The position numbers and the translations under genes are program-made. A stretch of DNA of 29,592 bases from Candidatus Xenobia bacterium (GTDB lineage: Bacteria; Vulcanimicrobiota; Xenobia; Xenobiales; QWHO01): contig BTUM01000093.1 of assembly GCA_045863235.1 (NCBI GenBank), positions 1 through 29,592 on the forward strand, in the 5' to 3' direction. The number at the start of each line of letters is the position of its first letter. The stretch's first letter is position 1. Positions 16,468 to 29,592 of the stretch are shown in pieces. The notes under the pieces were generated by a model. The model saw only the letters and a list, made by a program, of their open reading frames with translations, made no database searches and was not told the origin of the DNA.

Positions 16468-17301
16468 TTGAGCACGGTTACATCCGATCCCCTGGCCGAT
16501 CTGCAGCAGTTCGGCGAGCGGGTGGAGACAATTCAGCGCACCCTCAAAGAGCTGGGCAAGGCTCTCAAGGAGCTGCGCCCCCAGGAAACGCGCAAGCTGA
16601 AAGGCCGCCTCGAGCGCCTGCACAAGCTCGATCTGGGCCTGCCCGAATTCGAGCAAGAGCTGAAGGCTGTGCTCGCGCGGGTGGAGGCCTGGAGCAAGGA
16701 GCAAGAGCGCAGCCTGCCGCTTCAGTTCGGACGCACGCTCAAGGATGCGGCCGAAGAGGCCCGGGTGGGCTTCCTCAGCCTCACGGCCGAGCCCCCCACC
16801 TACTTCCTCGACCCCTTCACCATCGAGGCTGACTTCGGCAAGGGCATCGCGCGGCTGACCTACGCCCGCACCACGCTGGGCGAGGCCAGCCTGGAGCCGA
16901 AGGCCATCTTGCAGGAGCGCGACAAGATGCTGCAGGCCCTGGAAGGCAAGTCCTTCGACCCGGAAACCTACCTGGCCAGGCTGTATCGGGCCTACGAGCG
17001 CTCGGCCCCCAGGCCCCAGGACCGGGTGGAGCTGATCGACCTGTTGCCCGAGATCGCCTTGCTTTCGCAGTCAGACGACTTCCGCAAGGATCCCACCCGG
17101 GAAAACTACAAGCCCTACGGGCGGGTGCGCCTGGCCTACGACCTGGCGCGCCTGCGCAAGAGCGGCACCCTCACCCACCAGGGCAAGCGACTCACCCTGG
17201 GTACCGCCACCATCGGCACCACCAAGCACAAAGACCGGGTGCTCTTTCTCGAAGAGGGCCAGGGGCGCGGCCAATTCTACCTGACGGCGGCATTCGTATG
17301 A
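16468..17301 (+). CDS. Hypothetical protein with an N-terminal coiled coil; first gene of the DUF2791 operon
   Basis: 277 aa, TTG start with SD AGGAAGGA. Strong codon bias. ATGA overlap with the next gene. Confidence 0.85.
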   Translation: MSTVTSDPLADLQQFGERVETIQRTLKELGKALKELRPQETRKLKGRLERLHKLDLGLPEFEQELKAVLARVEAWSKEQERSLPLQFGRTLKDAAEEARVGFLSLTAEPPTYFLDPFTIEADFGKGIARLTYARTTLGEASLEPKAILQERDKMLQALEGKSFDPETYLARLYRAYERSAPRPQDRVELIDLLPEIALLSQSDDFRKDPTRENYKPYGRVRLAYDLARLRKSGTLTHQGKRLTLGTATIGTTKHKDRVLFLEEGQGRGQFYLTAAFV

Positions 17302-18557
17302 ACGATCTCACCCAACCCATCGCACGCCACATCATCTCCCGCATGGGTGAAGCCGGCCAGCCGCCCGAGTTCGGCATCCGCTTCGTCAACGTGGGCAACG
17401 AGAATCTGCTCGAGATCCTGGCCCTGGACTACCTCGACCGCCTGCTCTCGGGCGCCCGTGGCTCGGCCTTCAAGCTGGTGCAGGGTTACTATGGCGGGGG
17501 CAAGACCCACTTTCTGCACTGTGTGCGCGACCTGGCCTGGCAGCGGGGATTCTTGACCGCGGTGGTCAACCTCAGCCCCAGCGAGTGCCCCTATGAGGAC
17601 CCCTACCGGGTCTACAAGGCGGTGGTGACCGCCCTGACGACCCCGCCCCGCGAGCCCGGGCTCGAGCCCAGCCGGGGCCTGCCCGACGTGCTGCGCGACC
17701 TGTATGACGACCTGTCGAGCAAGCTCGACGCCGCGGCCATGAAGACCTGGATCAAGCGCAACGCCATGCGCATCCCCGCCGACAGCCACAGCTTGCGCCG
17801 GGCCATGGCCGAGTTCCTCAACGCCCTGCAAGAGGAAGACCGCGAGGGCGAGGCCCTGCTCGAGGCCTGGCTGCGCGGCGATCAGGTGCCGCGCTCCGAG
17901 CTCAAGCGCTTCGGCCTGTTCGAATGCATAGACTCCTCCAGCGCCTTCGGGGCCCTGCGCAGCCTGTGCCAGCTGATGGTGGGCTACGGCTATCCGGGCC
18001 TGGTGCTGATGTTCGACGAGGTGGATCGCAACCTGTCTCTCTCCACCCGGCGCATCCAGGCGCTGGGCGACAACCTGCGCCAGGTGATCGACCTGTGCGG
18101 AGCCTCGATGCTGCCGGGCGTGCTCTTTCTGTACGCCGTGCCGCCCGAGTTCTTGCGACTGGTCGTGCCCGAGTATCCGGCCCTGGATCAGCGGCTCAAG
18201 AGCCCGCTGCCCATGTCGTTTCGCAGCCCCCAGGCTCCGGTCATCGATCTCGAGCAACTCGGGATGGGTCCCGAGGAGCTGCTGGTGGCCATCGGCACCC
18301 GGTTGCTGGAGATCTTCCAACTGGCCGAGGGCTGGACGGCCACCGAGGCCATCCAGCAGGGCAACCTGCAGACCCTGGCCCGGGCCTGCGCCCACTACTC
18401 CTTCGAGGTGGGCCACCGGCGGTTGTTCGTGAAGACCTGGCTGGCCTTCCTGTACCAGCAGAAGTCGAGCGGCGAGTCCTGGCTCACCGACCCGGTGGCC
18501 GAGCAGATGCTGAGCGGTACCTTCGTGCCGGCTGGAGGCGACTTCCAGGATGTCTGA
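17298..18557 (+). CDS. BrxD/DUF2791-like P-loop ATPase
   Basis: 419 aa. N-terminal GQPP...VNVG, GSAFKLVQ followed by Walker A GYYGGGKT, Walker B GLVLMFDE, YPALDQRL and PVIDL. Confidence 0.8.
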   Translation: MNDLTQPIARHIISRMGEAGQPPEFGIRFVNVGNENLLEILALDYLDRLLSGARGSAFKLVQGYYGGGKTHFLHCVRDLAWQRGFLTAVVNLSPSECPYEDPYRVYKAVVTALTTPPREPGLEPSRGLPDVLRDLYDDLSSKLDAAAMKTWIKRNAMRIPADSHSLRRAMAEFLNALQEEDREGEALLEAWLRGDQVPRSELKRFGLFECIDSSSAFGALRSLCQLMVGYGYPGLVLMFDEVDRNLSLSTRRIQALGDNLRQVIDLCGASMLPGVLFLYAVPPEFLRLVVPEYPALDQRLKSPLPMSFRSPQAPVIDLEQLGMGPEELLVAIGTRLLEIFQLAEGWTATEAIQQGNLQTLARACAHYSFEVGHRRLFVKTWLAFLYQQKSSGESWLTDPVAEQMLSGTFVPAGGDFQDV

Positions 18558-20052
18558 CCTGCCCGGCATCGGCCAGGAAATCGTCCATCCCTTCTACGGG
18601 CGCGGCACGGTGGTGCGGCACATGCGGGGCGGGCGCTACCTGATGATCGACTTCGGGGCCGGGGTGCCCTACCAGATCCGCCCCGAGGAGCTGCGGCCGA
18701 CTCCGCCGCCACAACCCTCGCGGGAGATGGTCCCCCAGCCGAAGGCCCCCGAGCCGCCTGCTCCCAAGGCAAAGCCCGTGGTCGTGCCGGCTGCCCCGCG
18801 CGACGTGCCCCAGACGGCCGCCCAGGCCCTCAAGGTGCTGGAGGCGCTGCGGGTCGGGGTTGTGCCCTCGCAGTGGATCGAGTCCTATACCGTGGCACGC
18901 GAGCTGGAGCTGGCCCTGGTGGATGGCGACCTGACCGAGGCCGCGCGCGAGGGCTCGGCCCGGGTCTTTCTGGGCGACTACGGCACGGGCAAGACGCACC
19001 TGCTCGAGTCCATCGAAAAGCGGGCCCTGGCCAACAACTTCCTGGTCTCGCGCATCACGCTGGACGATGACGAGGTCTCCCCGGCCCATCCCAAGCGGGT
19101 CTACCGGGCCCTGGTGAACCGCCTGCACTACCCCGACCAGCCCTGGGGCTACGGCCTTCGTCCCCTCTTCGACCGCCTGCTGGAGGGCCCCAAGAAGAGC
19201 CTGCCCGAGCTCAATCCGGCCAAACCCGACTTCCACCGCTACCTCTCCCCCACCCTGCTGTACTACCGCGAGCTGCAGGACGAGGCCCTGCGCGAGGCCC
19301 TGCTCGACTGGGTGGAGGGCCATCCCAGCGAGTCCAATCTCGAGCTCGAGCCTGATCTTCGCAAGAAGACCGGAGTGCGGGGCCTGCGCCTGTATGCCCT
19401 GATGGACTACCGGCCGTGGGCACACCTCTACGCCTACATGGTGGGCGGACTGGCGGTGTGGGCCAAGCTCGCCGGCTACGCGGGGCTGACCGTGCTGTTC
19501 GACGAGGCCGAGTTCTACGCGCTGCTCGGCGCGGCCGGGCGCGACTTCGCCGACCTGGTCTTCGGCTACTACGCCAGCGCCGCCATGGGCCCCGAGAAGG
19601 TGCGCTTCGACCTCGACACAGCCAAGCGTGGAGGGCACGCCGTCCACCGCAGCTTTCCCCCCCGCTACGCCCCGGTGCAGCCGCTCTACTGCGTCTTTGC
19701 CATGACCGAGGACCCGGCCGGGGTGGGGGCGCTGAGCCGCCTGCTGCCCGCCGACCGCCTCAACCGCATCCGCGCCCTGGGCCTGGAAGACTATCAGGAG
19801 CTGTGCCGCCGGCTGGTGGAGATCTACAAGCTCGCCTATCCCGACTTCACCGTAGGAGCTGAGGTGCAGCGCCCCCTGGGCCAGGTGGTCTACATCGGGG
19901 TGGACCGGGGCGTGTTCGAGAACCCCCGCCAGGTGCTCAAGTTCATCCTGGAGATGCTGGACATCTCGCGCCTTTGCCGCGACCGCATTCCTGACTACGT
20001 CAAGGAGGTGCTCGCCCACCTGCGCGGCGAGCCCTCGGAGGTGGGCGCGTGA
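18550..20052 (+). CDS. BrxD/DUF2791-like P-loop ATPase with an N-terminal Tudor/SH3-like domain
   Basis: 500 aa. EALRVGVVP...VARELE, Walker A GDYGTGKT, Walker B GLTVLFDE. N-terminal GQEIVHPFYGRGTVV...IDF followed by a Pro-rich linker. 8-nt overlap with the upstream gene. Confidence 0.8.
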   Translation: MSDLPGIGQEIVHPFYGRGTVVRHMRGGRYLMIDFGAGVPYQIRPEELRPTPPPQPSREMVPQPKAPEPPAPKAKPVVVPAAPRDVPQTAAQALKVLEALRVGVVPSQWIESYTVARELELALVDGDLTEAAREGSARVFLGDYGTGKTHLLESIEKRALANNFLVSRITLDDDEVSPAHPKRVYRALVNRLHYPDQPWGYGLRPLFDRLLEGPKKSLPELNPAKPDFHRYLSPTLLYYRELQDEALREALLDWVEGHPSESNLELEPDLRKKTGVRGLRLYALMDYRPWAHLYAYMVGGLAVWAKLAGYAGLTVLFDEAEFYALLGAAGRDFADLVFGYYASAAMGPEKVRFDLDTAKRGGHAVHRSFPPRYAPVQPLYCVFAMTEDPAGVGALSRLLPADRLNRIRALGLEDYQELCRRLVEIYKLAYPDFTVGAEVQRPLGQVVYIGVDRGVFENPRQVLKFILEMLDISRLCRDRIPDYVKEVLAHLRGEPSEVGA

Positions 20053-25737: not shown

Positions 25738-26988
25738 TCAGAGGCGCACCTCGAAGTTCAGCTCCGAGGTCCAGCGCCCGCCACCCGGAGCCACCTGACG
25801 GCCTTCCAGGGAGCGCGCGAAGCTGGCGTAATCGACCGCCTGGTAGGCGTCGAGCAGGGCCCGGGCCTCCTCGGGAGACTCGAGCAGGAAGGCGCGCACC
25901 CGCTCCAGGCCCGGCCGGTCGGGCGCGAAGGCCTGCTCCGGGCCGGGGATCTCGATGCGGCCGGGGCTCACGCGGGCCGCTTCCAGGCCGCCCGTCAGGG
26001 GATAGAGGCGCTGGATCCTGCCGCTCACCCCGTGCTCGAGCAGCACGAGATAGCCGGGAGAGCCCACTTCCACCGTAAAGCGCAGCTTCTCCCCCACCTT
26101 GAGCTGGGAGCGGTCGGGCTGCATCCGCAGCTCGAGGCGGGCCGGGTCGGGACGGTCGCGGTGGTAGAGCTCCCACAGGTTGGCGCTCTGGGGTTCGGCA
26201 GCGGGGGCCGAGCCGCCGAACACGGGCCGCTCGGCCGCCCCCGGCGTCAGCGTGGGGTGCTGCTCGTCGCCCAGGTGAGCGGCCACCCGGGTGCTCACCC
26301 GGGCCTGCAGATCGCCCCACAGGAGCGGCTGCGGCTGCAGCAGGGCGTCGGCCAGGTAGTAGGTGAACACGCCGTGCATCTTGCCGCCGAGCTCGTCCTC
26401 GCGGGCACCCTGGTTCTGGCGGCTGGCCACGAAGTAGATCACCTGCTCGGAGCCGAGCGCAGGCGTGTCGCCCTGCGGGCTCACAGACCGAGCGGTGGCC
26501 TTGGGGTAGAAGCGGTTGCGCCTGGCCAGGCCCAGTCCGCGCGAGGCCAGAAAGCTCTCCGAGAAGCAGGCGTCCAGGAGGACCGTGCGCTCTTTTGTGG
26601 GCAGAGCGGCCAGGAGCTTCTTCAACTCGTGCTCGCTCAGGTCGGTGGCCAGCTTGCCCTCGGCCGAGTCGAAGGGCAAGAGATAGGCCACCTCTGCCAG
26701 CGTCCCGTGACCGGCGAAGTAGAGCACGAAGCGCTCGCCCGGCTCGAGCTGGCGAGCCTGGCGCTGGAAGGCCTGGCGCAGGCCGGCCAGGGTGGCCTTC
26801 TCATCGGTCAGCAGCTCGACTTGGAACCCCATGTCCTTCAGGCGTCGGGCCATCAGGTTGGCGTCGTTGACCGCTCCGAGCAGGTTGGCCTGATGGCGCA
26901 GGAAGGGATAGCGGTCGATGCCCACCACCAGCGCCCGGTCGCCCAGCGCAGCCTGGGCCAGCAGCCAGAAGAGCAGCAGGATTCTCAT
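25738..26988 (-). CDS. Secreted caspase-family (peptidase C14) protein with a C-terminal DUF4384-like domain
   Basis: Signal-peptide-like MRILLLFWLLAQAALG. ALVVGIDRY, NLLGAVNDA, catalytic YFAGHG and LLDACFS, HGVFTYYL. C-terminal LKVGEKLRFTV...GYLVLL...SGRIQRLYP...PGLERVRAF. Confidence 0.85.
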   Translation of the reverse strand: MRILLLFWLLAQAALGDRALVVGIDRYPFLRHQANLLGAVNDANLMARRLKDMGFQVELLTDEKATLAGLRQAFQRQARQLEPGERFVLYFAGHGTLAEVAYLLPFDSAEGKLATDLSEHELKKLLAALPTKERTVLLDACFSESFLASRGLGLARRNRFYPKATARSVSPQGDTPALGSEQVIYFVASRQNQGAREDELGGKMHGVFTYYLADALLQPQPLLWGDLQARVSTRVAAHLGDEQHPTLTPGAAERPVFGGSAPAAEPQSANLWELYHRDRPDPARLELRMQPDRSQLKVGEKLRFTVEVGSPGYLVLLEHGVSGRIQRLYPLTGGLEAARVSPGRIEIPGPEQAFAPDRPGLERVRAFLLESPEEARALLDAYQAVDYASFARSLEGRQVAPGGGRWTSELNFEVRL

Positions 26989-28487
26989 CGCTGTAGCTCG
27001 AGGTTGCAGCGCACCAGCTGGAAGTTGGAGAGAGGCACCAGCTGGCCTCGGATGGTGCAGTTGACCAGTTTGACGGGCGCTTCGGCGCGCAGGGTGCCCT
27101 CCAGCACGCTCTTGTCGCCGTCGATGGTGACCGGCCTGGTGAAGAGCAGGTCTTCTCGGTAGGTGCCCGCGGTCACCATGATGACCGAGTTGGCGGGCGC
27201 ATCCCGCAGGGCGGCTCCCAGGCTGGCATAGGGCGCCTCCTGCCCGTGGGAGACGAAGAGGGGCTTGCTCCCGCCCATGCCGGACATGCGGGCCTCCATG
27301 CCCATCAGCTGGCTCAAGAGCCCGGCTGCCTCACCGCTTCGGGCCCGCTCGTCCTGGGCCTGGCGGGCCTGTTGCTCGGCCCGGCGAAGCTCGGCTTCGC
27401 GCTGGCGAGCTTTCTCGGCCAGCACCGGATCCTGAGGATTCTGGCGGGCGGCCTGCTCCGCCTGGCGGGCCCGCTCCTCGGCCTCGCGGCGAGCTTTCTC
27501 GGCCTGCTCGGCGCGGGCCTCGGCCTCGGCCCGGGCAGCCTCGGCCTGCCGGGCGCGCTGCTCGGCCTGCTCGCGGGCTTGCTTCTCACGCTGCAGGTCG
27601 GTTCCGGAAGGTTGGCTGGCCTGGCCGCGGGCGAGCTCCCAGCCATCGGCGCCGGGGCCCTCATAGCGCAGCCAGGGCACCTGCTTTTGCATGAGCCAGC
27701 GGCTGGAGGCGTCGGCCACCTCGCGCTGGACATAGTTGGTCAGCGACTGCAGGGTAACCCGCCCGTCGGCACCGGCCGCCTGGCCCTTCAAGCCCTCCAC
27801 CAGGTAGTAGGTGAAAAAGCCGTGGCCCTGCTCGCTCCACTCGAAGGAGCGCTGGCCGGCGCTGCAGGCAAAGAAGGTGGCGCTGGCGGGCACCACCTCG
27901 GCTTTGGGCTCGGCGGTGCGGGACACCAGGGTCAGATCGCGGGCCATCTGATCCGAGAGCTGGTTGTCAGCCTCGCCTTTGCCGGCCATCGGGTCGTTGC
28001 GACAGGCATCCACCACCAGCAGCGTGCGCGCCGCCCGGGTGGCTCCCAGCCAGCGAAACAGATCGCTTGCATTGAGGGCCGACTGCTGCAGCGTCAGCAG
28101 GCTGCGCGAATCGGCCTCGGCGGTGAGCAGGAACGACTGGCCCTCGACCTCCACCCCGTGGCCCGAGAAGTAGACCAGCAGGGTGTCGTTGGGGCCCATG
28201 TTCTTGATCAGGAAGTCGAAGCGGAAGGCCACGTTGGTGCGGGTGGGCAGCTCGTAGCCGGTGCGGTCGGTGGTCAGCACGAAGACGTCCTTGGGCTGAA
28301 AGCCGCCGTGCGAGACCAGCGCCTCGGCCAGCTTGCGGGCGTCGGCCTCGGCAAAGCGCAAGGGGGTGATGCCCGGGTTCTGGTAGCGATTGATGCCGAT
28401 GACGATGGCCCACTTGCGGCCCGCGGTCTCGGCTGAAACTGCCGCTGTCAGGGCCAGCAGCAGGCAGATGCTCAGGATCGTTCTCAT
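26985..28487 (-). CDS. Secreted caspase-family (peptidase C14) protein with a coiled coil and a short beta-helix-like C-terminus
   Basis: Signal peptide MRTILSICLLLALTAAVSA. WAIVIGINRY, LRFAEADA, catalytic YFSGHG and VVDACRN, HGFFTYYL. EQ/AR-rich coiled coil. C-terminal YASLGAAL...IMVTAGTYRE..VTIDG. ATGA overlap with the next gene. Confidence 0.88.
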   Translation of the reverse strand: MRTILSICLLLALTAAVSAETAGRKWAIVIGINRYQNPGITPLRFAEADARKLAEALVSHGGFQPKDVFVLTTDRTGYELPTRTNVAFRFDFLIKNMGPNDTLLVYFSGHGVEVEGQSFLLTAEADSRSLLTLQQSALNASDLFRWLGATRAARTLLVVDACRNDPMAGKGEADNQLSDQMARDLTLVSRTAEPKAEVVPASATFFACSAGQRSFEWSEQGHGFFTYYLVEGLKGQAAGADGRVTLQSLTNYVQREVADASSRWLMQKQVPWLRYEGPGADGWELARGQASQPSGTDLQREKQAREQAEQRARQAEAARAEAEARAEQAEKARREAEERARQAEQAARQNPQDPVLAEKARQREAELRRAEQQARQAQDERARSGEAAGLLSQLMGMEARMSGMGGSKPLFVSHGQEAPYASLGAALRDAPANSVIMVTAGTYREDLLFTRPVTIDGDKSVLEGTLRAEAPVKLVNCTIRGQLVPLSNFQLVRCNLELQR

Positions 28488-28825: not shown

Positions 28826-28855
28826 CGGGATTCCCTGGGTTTCCCGGGAATCTCG
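28826..28855. terminator. Stem-loop immediately 3' of the precursor-like gene
   Basis: CGGGATTCCC / GGGAATCTCG inverted repeat 10 nt past the stop at 28866. No U-tract, so it may be a stabilising hairpin rather than a terminator. Confidence 0.35.
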
Positions 28856-28865
28856 GTACTGAAGC

Positions 28866-29219
28866 TCAGCCCAACCAGCTCCAGAAGGGCCTGGCCTGGC
28901 CGCTCGGCCCGGGTCGAGGAGGCGCTGCGTGGTTGTCCACGTCAGAAGGATAGCGACGGGTCCGCAGGACGTCCATGTCGCTGTCCGACGGATAGGCCTC
29001 GGTACAGTCGACGAAGTGGTCCACGTCCTTGTCGGACGGGTAAGCCTTGGTGACGGTCACGGGCTCCGGCTTCGGAGCGGGCCGCTCGGTCTGATCTTCG
29101 AGGAGTTGCTCGAAGAAGGGCTCTGAGCGCGTCAGTGCCGAGGCACCGAGGAGCGCGCCTCCCACAAAGAGCATGTCGGCCAGCAGGCGGCGGCGGGTTC
29201 GCTTGTCTTGCATAGCCAT
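28866..29219 (-). CDS. Microviridin/marinostatin-like (graspetide) multi-core precursor peptide with a twin-arginine-like N-terminus
   Basis: 117 aa. PFFEQLLEDQ resembles the PFFARFL leader box. Three cores: TKAYPSDKDVD, TEAYPSDSDMD and TRRYPSDVDN (family motif TxKYPSD; marinostatin TMRYPSDSD). N-terminus TRRRLL plus a hydrophobic stretch. Confidence 0.75.
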   Translation of the reverse strand: MAMQDKRTRRRLLADMLFVGGALLGASALTRSEPFFEQLLEDQTERPAPKPEPVTVTKAYPSDKDVDHFVDCTEAYPSDSDMDVLRTRRYPSDVDNHAAPPRPGPSGQARPFWSWLG

Positions 29220-29592
29220 CCCGTCGTCGTTTGGGGAGCTTTGTTCCCTCGGACTCTCCTGAACAGGGCGGGCGTGTCAATGCGTGGCACAGTGAGCCAA
29301 TGTTGTTCTCCAGCCATTTGAATCAGCCAGACGCCGCCCCGTGACAACAAGAACAGAGTGGCTCGCCAACACGAATCTGGATGCGAGGGGAGTTGGAGCA
29401 TCGACTTCCTTTTGCACGCTCGCTAGAGCGAGCGTGCCGGGGCGGACATCAAACATATTCCTTGGCCGAAGAGAATCAAGTTCAACACAGGAAATCCCCC
29501 CCCCCCGCACATCGAATACCTGAATTCTAAGCCAAAGCTCGGGGAGGGGCCCATTCTCACCTGCCGCCGCGGGGTCGCACTGGCGACCGTTC

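Follow-up and report, generated by a model that had tools for sequence, protein, structure and literature searches.

In microviridin-type cores, the esters pair the Thr with the first Asp and the Ser with the second Asp, and the residue after the Thr is the presumed specificity position of the inhibitor. Marinostatin has Arg at the position of the lactam Lys. It shares the lactone architecture of microviridin without the lactam, and of the two ligases MvdD makes the lactones and MvdC makes the lactam (PMC13039773). According to the same source, the class II multi-core microviridins (AMdnA, Anabaena PCC 7120) have a PFF-type box followed by several cores, and the processing and exit of microviridin-type precursors without a double-glycine site are still partly open (PMC13039773).

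We examined a stretch of 29,592 nucleotides (the window, contig C93 of genome G000) from a Candidatus Xenobia bacterium, in which an ORF of 117 amino acids encodes a precursor related to these systems (Table 1). Like marinostatin, the window precursor keeps the lactone-forming residues without the lactam Lys, and its third core has Arg at the Lys position. Unlike marinostatin, it is multi-core with mostly Ala at that position, carries a twin-arginine module and a second box at the C-terminus, and has no adjoining ligase. It resembles the class II precursors in having a PFF-type box ahead of several cores, but it has no Lys, so that no tricycle is expected, and it is without inter-core double-glycine sites (inspection of the sequence found no Gly-Gly between the cores), a C39-ABC transporter or MvdC/MvdD clustering. 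Further likenesses were found within the lineage. Four precursors linked to a lone MvdD-like ligase (on C84 of this genome and at L089, L090 and L095) share the box form and the Ala/Arg cores; however, they adjoin their own ligase and have long polar N-termini with Trp-x-x-x-x-Gly and no twin-arginine module. Conversely, short proteins linked to a radical SAM enzyme (on C18 of this genome and in relatives) have the same N-terminal module as the window precursor, but carry Pro-rich Gly repeats where the window precursor has the PFF box and YPSD cores.

The combination of a twin-arginine module, strictly Lys-free cores, a second C-terminal box and a stand-alone gene appears to be a new layout. 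The family assignment is not new, because automatic NCBI annotation already names two homologues microviridin/marinostatin precursors; the preliminary description, which had seen here the window's best candidate for an undescribed natural-product system, went too far in this respect. A targeted literature search, with the main graspetide surveys and the supplementary precursor tables of PMC8939145 outside its scope, found no Tat export route for RiPPs, no twin-arginine graspetide precursor and no radical SAM RiPP Tat signal. No report of a microviridin from Eremiobacterota was found either, again with the main graspetide surveys outside the scope.

The window ORF is assigned by profile to the microviridin/marinostatin family

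By profile, the window precursor is a genuine member of the microviridin/marinostatin family, and its cores do not indicate a tricyclic microviridin. Scoring against precursor HMMs, a step suggested in the preliminary description, gave 30.3 bits with NF033738 (the NCBIfam microviridin/marinostatin precursor model), which passes the cut-off of 26, and 16.1 with Pfam PF12559, which is below the cut-off of 21. The ORF, the leader box and the three cores first described map exactly to the positions in Table 1. That description had also judged a chance origin of the leader box and cores unlikely, and our searches agree: the core pattern used for counting, T-x-x-[YF]-P-S-D-x-[DE], had no match outside the seven precursor ORFs among 14,969,981 six-frame residues of the genome, and at least one core arose in only 16 of 200,000 shuffles of the window precursor, indicating that the core layout is not due to chance. 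Its reading of the precursor as a whole was supported by the two computational tests it had named, the genome search for ligases and the conservation in homologues (both below), but was incomplete, since the N-terminus had been taken as an ordinary leader and the C-terminal box had been missed. The leader box itself is a degenerate form without the Arg of PFFARFL.

Table 1. Features of the window precursor
Feature	Position in window	Strand	Description
Precursor ORF	28866..29219	(-)	117 aa, probably 115 from second Met at 29213
Twin-arginine module, aa 9-30	29130..29195	(-)	RR-x-LL, invariant Asp, 15 uncharged residues; Tat-signal-like
PFF leader box, aa 34-43	29091..29120	(-)	Lineage form of the microviridin ligase-binding motif
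Pro-rich spacer, aa 44-56	29052..29090	(-)	Read from the sequence
Core 1	29019..29051	(-)	Ala at lactam position; Lys after Thr
Core 2	28971..29003	(-)	Ala at lactam position; Glu after Thr
Core 3	28932..28961	(-)	Arg at lactam position, marinostatin-like; Arg after Thr
C-terminal PFW box, aa 111-117	28869..28889	(-)	Resembles a second copy of the leader box

The shorter form is probably the true product, because the closest homologues start at the second Met and this codon is preceded by GGGA. Comparison with three close copies gave synonymous/non-synonymous codon changes of 4/2, 9/4 and 12/9, respectively, and this excess of synonymous changes is as expected for a coding gene. A promoter and terminator scan returned neither a promoter-like site nor a terminator for the strand of the gene; a short imperfect inverted repeat just past the stop codon (window 28829-28852), seen by eye, was not called a terminator. 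Among RNA libraries, contigs spanned the ORF wholly in X1 and partly in X4, with none in X2 and X7, although transcription is not thereby demonstrated.

Precursors with the same layout in related genomes

The layout is shared by 28 proteins (P0001-P0028), to which a further search round added P0192; in the last two family searches, the best 8,000 candidates were scored. These proteins form 29 clusters at 90% identity and, in an alignment of 27 rows, are 41-91% identical to the window protein. NF033738 matched all 27 aligned members at E<=0.05. As the preliminary description had proposed to verify in homologues, the Thr, Ser and Asp positions and the PFF box are conserved: a PFF-type box lies ahead of the cores in 28/28 family proteins, and 26 of the 28 also carry a second box, P-[FLI]-[WF], at the C-terminus, which in P0028 is the canonical PFFARFL. 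This C-terminal box may offer the ligase a second binding site or form a helix in contact with the membrane. Single cores are decayed in some homologues; core 3, for example, is degraded in the 91% identical P0002.

The full form was found in 4 of 44 genomes of the class (twice each in G000 and G046, and in G106 and G074), while a fifth matching genome, G060, contained long ligase-type precursors only. It was not found in other classes among 401 genomes of the phylum, with 11 or fewer candidates scored per genome. The homologues with a named source belong to Ca. Eremiobacterota and bacterium CPR1.

The precursor gene stands alone

The nearest neighbors of the precursor gene encode a membrane protein of 83 aa and two proteins with caspase domains, and the contig ends 373 bases upstream. 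At a near-identical locus (L060), which appears syntenic except at the contig end, the upstream gene encodes an alpha/beta hydrolase. Across seven related locus records (L060, L061, L062, L065, L066, L032 and L043, of which L062 and L065 are the same place), we found neither a ligase nor a neighbor common across species, and the same was true of the in-genome paralogue on C33. The precursor gene is thus an orphan, stand-alone gene, with neighbors that differ even between close relatives. Such differences could suggest a mobile cassette, but no mobile-element gene was identified.

The lack of an adjacent ligase, the differing neighbors, the patchy spread over four genomes and the decay of single cores would all be expected of an unmodified or decaying orphan that has lost its ligase and whose product is linear or unused. 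We consider this very unlikely, because the 29 clusters, diverged to the degree given above, keep the ring-forming residues and both boxes, and synonymous changes exceed non-synonymous ones.

Two features of the surrounding DNA were noted. A repeat at the contig end (window 29460-29592) recurs with 78-89% identity at the ends of C3 and C100 and within C24, and probably caused the assembly break. The two caspase-domain (Peptidase_C14) proteins are encoded by adjacent genes (window 25738-28487, minus strand) that lie downstream of the precursor gene and share its strand; both have hydrophobic N-termini, one has DUF4384, and the pair is absent at the more distant family loci.

The cores are predicted to form ester-only bicycles

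All three cores of the window precursor keep the ester positions (Thr, Ser and two Asp), and none has the Lys and acceptor acid for a lactam. The preliminary description had predicted ester-only bicyclic cores, and the relatives bear this out. In 62 cores from 28 family proteins, Thr/Ser, Ser, Asp and Asp are kept, the lactam position is occupied by Ala in 56 and Arg in six, and neither the lactam Lys nor an acid at the acceptor position occurs. A looser count gave 66 core-like stretches, also without Lys, of which 62 had Thr/Ser and both Asp.

The genome has 41 cores of this type in seven ORFs (42 if His is allowed at the aromatic position). The acceptor acid was present in 23/23 Lys cores, whereas it was absent in 15 of the 19 Ala/Arg cores, the four exceptions being Ala cores of the mixed precursor on C114. 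The Arg cores of L091 and L095 also keep the acceptor acid. Apart from such exceptions, the lactam Lys and the acceptor acid are lost together, and ester-only bicycles without a lactam are well supported as the predicted products. A similar pattern was seen class-wide in the ligases: lone-MvdD loci with visible YPSD-type cores had solely Ala/Arg cores (7/7), and MvdC-containing loci with visible cores included Lys cores (9/9). One MvdC+MvdD locus and five lone-ligase loci, coreless in their 1.5 kb flanks, stand outside these counts, as do four loci adjoining other precursor types; related loci are kin and not independent tests, so that we read the association of core and ligase as a pattern rather than as a statistical test.

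The residue after the Thr varied widely among the 62 family cores (Lys 18, Glu 17, Cys 12, Arg 7, Gln 7 and Ser 1). Glu or Cys at this position is unusual in the loops of serine-protease inhibitors and speaks against an inhibitor role. The family offers about 60 natural cores, predicted to be ester-only, with unusual residues (Lys, Glu, Cys, Arg and Gln) at the presumed specificity position.

Candidate ligases are encoded elsewhere in the genome

No ATP-grasp ligase was found among the 21 window proteins scanned, and contig C93 had no ligase-family match. The genome-wide search for graspetide ATP-grasp ligases, also suggested at the outset, found three MvdD-like genes (C57:1967, C84:30192 and C53:43993), which score 308-384 bits, below the equivalog cut-off of 475, and one MvdC-like gene (C57:1020), likewise below its curated equivalog cut-off. 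The C84 gene encodes a lone ligase that matches the solved ATP-grasp ligase 5IG9 (E 1.5e-75) and adjoins another Ala/Arg-core precursor. We regard this lone MvdD-type ligase as the best candidate enzyme for the window precursor.

Because the ligases lie only elsewhere in the genome, modification of the window precursor would occur in trans; no ligase adjoins any of the family loci inspected, and we therefore infer the link between enzyme and substrate. Uncoupling of ligase and precursor is common in the class, with several lone ligases having no YPSD precursor within about 1.5 kb. MvdD-like genes are carried by G000, G046 and G074, and in G106 (65% complete), which has a precursor gene, there was no MvdD-like match at E<=1e-50. 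The motif and the co-variation suggest that a cytoplasmic MvdD-type ATP-grasp ligase would bind the PFF box and close two esters per core, from Thr to the first Asp and from Ser to the second Asp, with no lactam. We consider this step highly probable, although the missing Arg of the leader box, the lack of an adjoining ligase and the result for G106 speak against it.

Two further approaches to the cognate enzyme were tried. A ligase tree was rejected as a guide, as the ligases of Ala/Arg-core precursors do not form one clade (3 changes). Co-variation of the leader box with ligase residues that correspond to MdnC leader contacts gave no clean pattern among 25 ligases and was dropped.

The N-terminal module also occurs in a radical SAM peptide system

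The twin-arginine module also begins one orphan gene on C31 and three short genes on C18 that directly follow a gene for a PapB-like radical SAM enzyme (C18:32707). The enzyme is present in 18 of 44 genomes of the class, and 17 of the 22 enzyme loci have one to six module-bearing short genes alongside (L027:6865-8736, which equals G000:C18:31864-33735, and L067-L088). It has 343 aa with its Cys motif from residue 11, which leaves no room for an N-terminal recognition domain. The short proteins beside it have Pro-rich repeats centred on Gly, and the enzyme and these genes together are apparently a RiPP-like system so far unnamed.

To relate this module to the window precursor, a profile was made from 25 enzyme-linked segments of other genomes; it replaced a search of the own genome with profile A2, which was circular. 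The independent profile found the window ORF with E 5.4e-7 among 152,787 six-frame segments, and the next match outside the family had E 0.022. In a search of 1.84 billion representatives, the module had 198 matches at E<=0.001. Among the 150 of these that were listed, all were 194 aa or shorter, 147 had the twin Arg, and the cargo comprised Gly motifs in 134, YPSD cores in five and neither in 11. The module thus goes with short, peptide-like cargo, and this cargo is of two different types. It was absent from ten ordinary microviridin-type matches.

These data raise the possibility of a natural hybrid, in which the PapB-like radical SAM enzyme uses the module as its leader, both this enzyme and the ATP-grasp ligase act on the precursor, and the module may at the same time direct export. 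The frequent pairing of module and enzyme and the profile match to the window ORF speak for it, as does the size of the listed carriers, so that none is a large folded Tat enzyme. In addition, the enzyme is present in three of the four genomes with a precursor gene, and 20 of the 28 family proteins have Cys beyond the module. However, Cys is missing in the other eight, no inspected family gene adjoins this radical SAM enzyme, and the family has hardly any of the Gly repeats, with two or more motifs in 1/28 family proteins vs 117/145 enzyme neighbors (at least one in 10/28, with a loose pattern). The window precursor has one loose Gly-motif match, and the enzyme is not adjacent to it. A second modification by the radical SAM enzyme is thus not favored, and we rate the hybrid as rather improbable.

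A Tat route may export the cross-linked chain

ATP-dependent cyclisation must take place in the cytoplasm, and Tat is the general route that passes folded cargo. The twin Arg, in the RR-x-FL register, is present in 26 of the 28 family proteins, and the other two start downstream of it. RR-x-hydrophobic-hydrophobic with an uncharged stretch also occurs in 26/28; the stretch is 12-16 residues long (15 for the window protein). After this hydrophobic stretch comes a small-x-small site in 26/26, in a loose test on a segment rich in Ala and Gly. The Tat signal model TIGR01409 did not match the window protein; at E<=0.05 it found nine of the 27 members, and the in-genome paralogue scores above its cut-off (18.6 vs 16.7). 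NCBI names P0017 a twin-arginine signal protein. The genome has a TatC over the cut-off, and an adjacent 75-aa gene looks TatA-like by eye. In the ESM Atlas, all feature scores were below 0.9 and structure matches were uninformative; families with Tat signals were the closest of the named clusters, which is a lead only.

Against a plain Tat signal stand the missing TIGR01409 match of the window protein, the shortness of the uncharged stretch and the invariant Asp with its Asp-x-Leu-Phe-x-Gly pattern, which is conserved much more strongly than other Tat-like N-termini of the genome. Such conservation suggests that the module has a specific partner, and the radical SAM enzyme could be the one that binds this pattern. 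The conservation exceeds what Tat needs and would also suit an uncleaved membrane anchor or docking helix, with cores cyclised in trans staying membrane-bound and possibly facing the cytoplasm. The Trp-rich C-terminal box could then form a second membrane contact, and the failure of TIGR01409 to find the window protein fits as well. On the other hand, 12-16 uncharged residues are short for a membrane span, the twin Arg is almost invariant, and the small-x-small site, loose as the test is, was found throughout. We consider the anchor unlikely, though less so than the hybrid described above.

Class II microviridin-type processing would offer another exit, in which a C39 peptidase cuts after the N-terminal Gly-Gly and an ABC transporter exports the rest. 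The Gly-Gly is kept almost without exception across the family alignment, two C39 domains are encoded in the genome, and multi-core class II precursors use double-glycine motifs (PMC13039773). But the C39 domains sit in frames of 226 and 283 aa, both too short for peptidase-transporters, and the flanks of about 1.5 kb around the radical SAM loci and the family loci showed no conserved transporter. Furthermore, the Gly-Gly lies inside the hydrophobic stretch and is replaced in some members, and there are no such sites between the cores. This is the least probable of the readings considered here.

As a second and weaker step after cyclisation, the twin-arginine module would send the cross-linked chain through Tat, so that no dedicated transporter or double-glycine peptidase would be needed. 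By analogy, the chain, whole or clipped, would then act outside the cytoplasm as a multi-headed serine-protease inhibitor, and the residue that follows each Thr would determine its specificity. For our preferred reading, a stand-alone multi-core bicyclic graspetide precursor that is cyclised by an MvdD-type ligase and exported via Tat as an extracytoplasmic inhibitor, we put the chances at even or slightly less. More tentatively, and short of an even chance, this graspetide subfamily may have taken its twin-arginine signal/leader module from the unrelated radical SAM system and may export folded ester-linked chains via Tat, with ligase-binding boxes flanking the cores.

If the Tat-like signal is real, it would provide a route free of a dedicated transporter, with cytoplasmic modification, folded export and perhaps trimming by signal peptidase, and it could serve the secretion of graspetide libraries. 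If the module was indeed taken over from the radical SAM system, this would be a case of natural modular swapping between two RiPP classes. The family also points to the apparently unnamed radical SAM peptide system, which is common in this Eremiobacterota class.

Other loci in the window and the genome

Farther along the window (16468-20052, plus strand), two tandem genes for BrxC/BrxD-family ATPases, under the BrxD cut-off, follow a coiled-coil gene; they are possibly a BREX-like defence module.

Several other graspetide-related loci were observed in the genome. Two tandem ATP-grasp-like gene pairs on C45 and C108 (L025:7338-9118 and L026:6495-8293) are closest to TIGR04187, and no precursor was recognised beside them. 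An orphan precursor of 339 aa (G000:C114:8869-9885; L022:6870-7886) has nine cores, a mixture of Lys and Ala types, with no ligase in the vicinity. On C156 and C148 (L023:2-373 and L024:8243-9527), Ala-type YPSD cores are followed by a different Pro/Glu-rich repeat, and the precursor adjoins a divergent ATP-grasp ligase closer to MvdC; the two pieces are probably one gene split over contigs. Of the pieces on C53 and C57, one breaks off and the other starts within the same repeat, and they too are probably a single gene. Finally, a graspetide precursor at G000:C53:43283-44940 (L019:5284-6941) has a PFF box, two kinds of non-microviridin repeats and a C-terminal FF box, and directly precedes a lone divergent MvdD-like ligase, an arrangement also present in G104 and G054.
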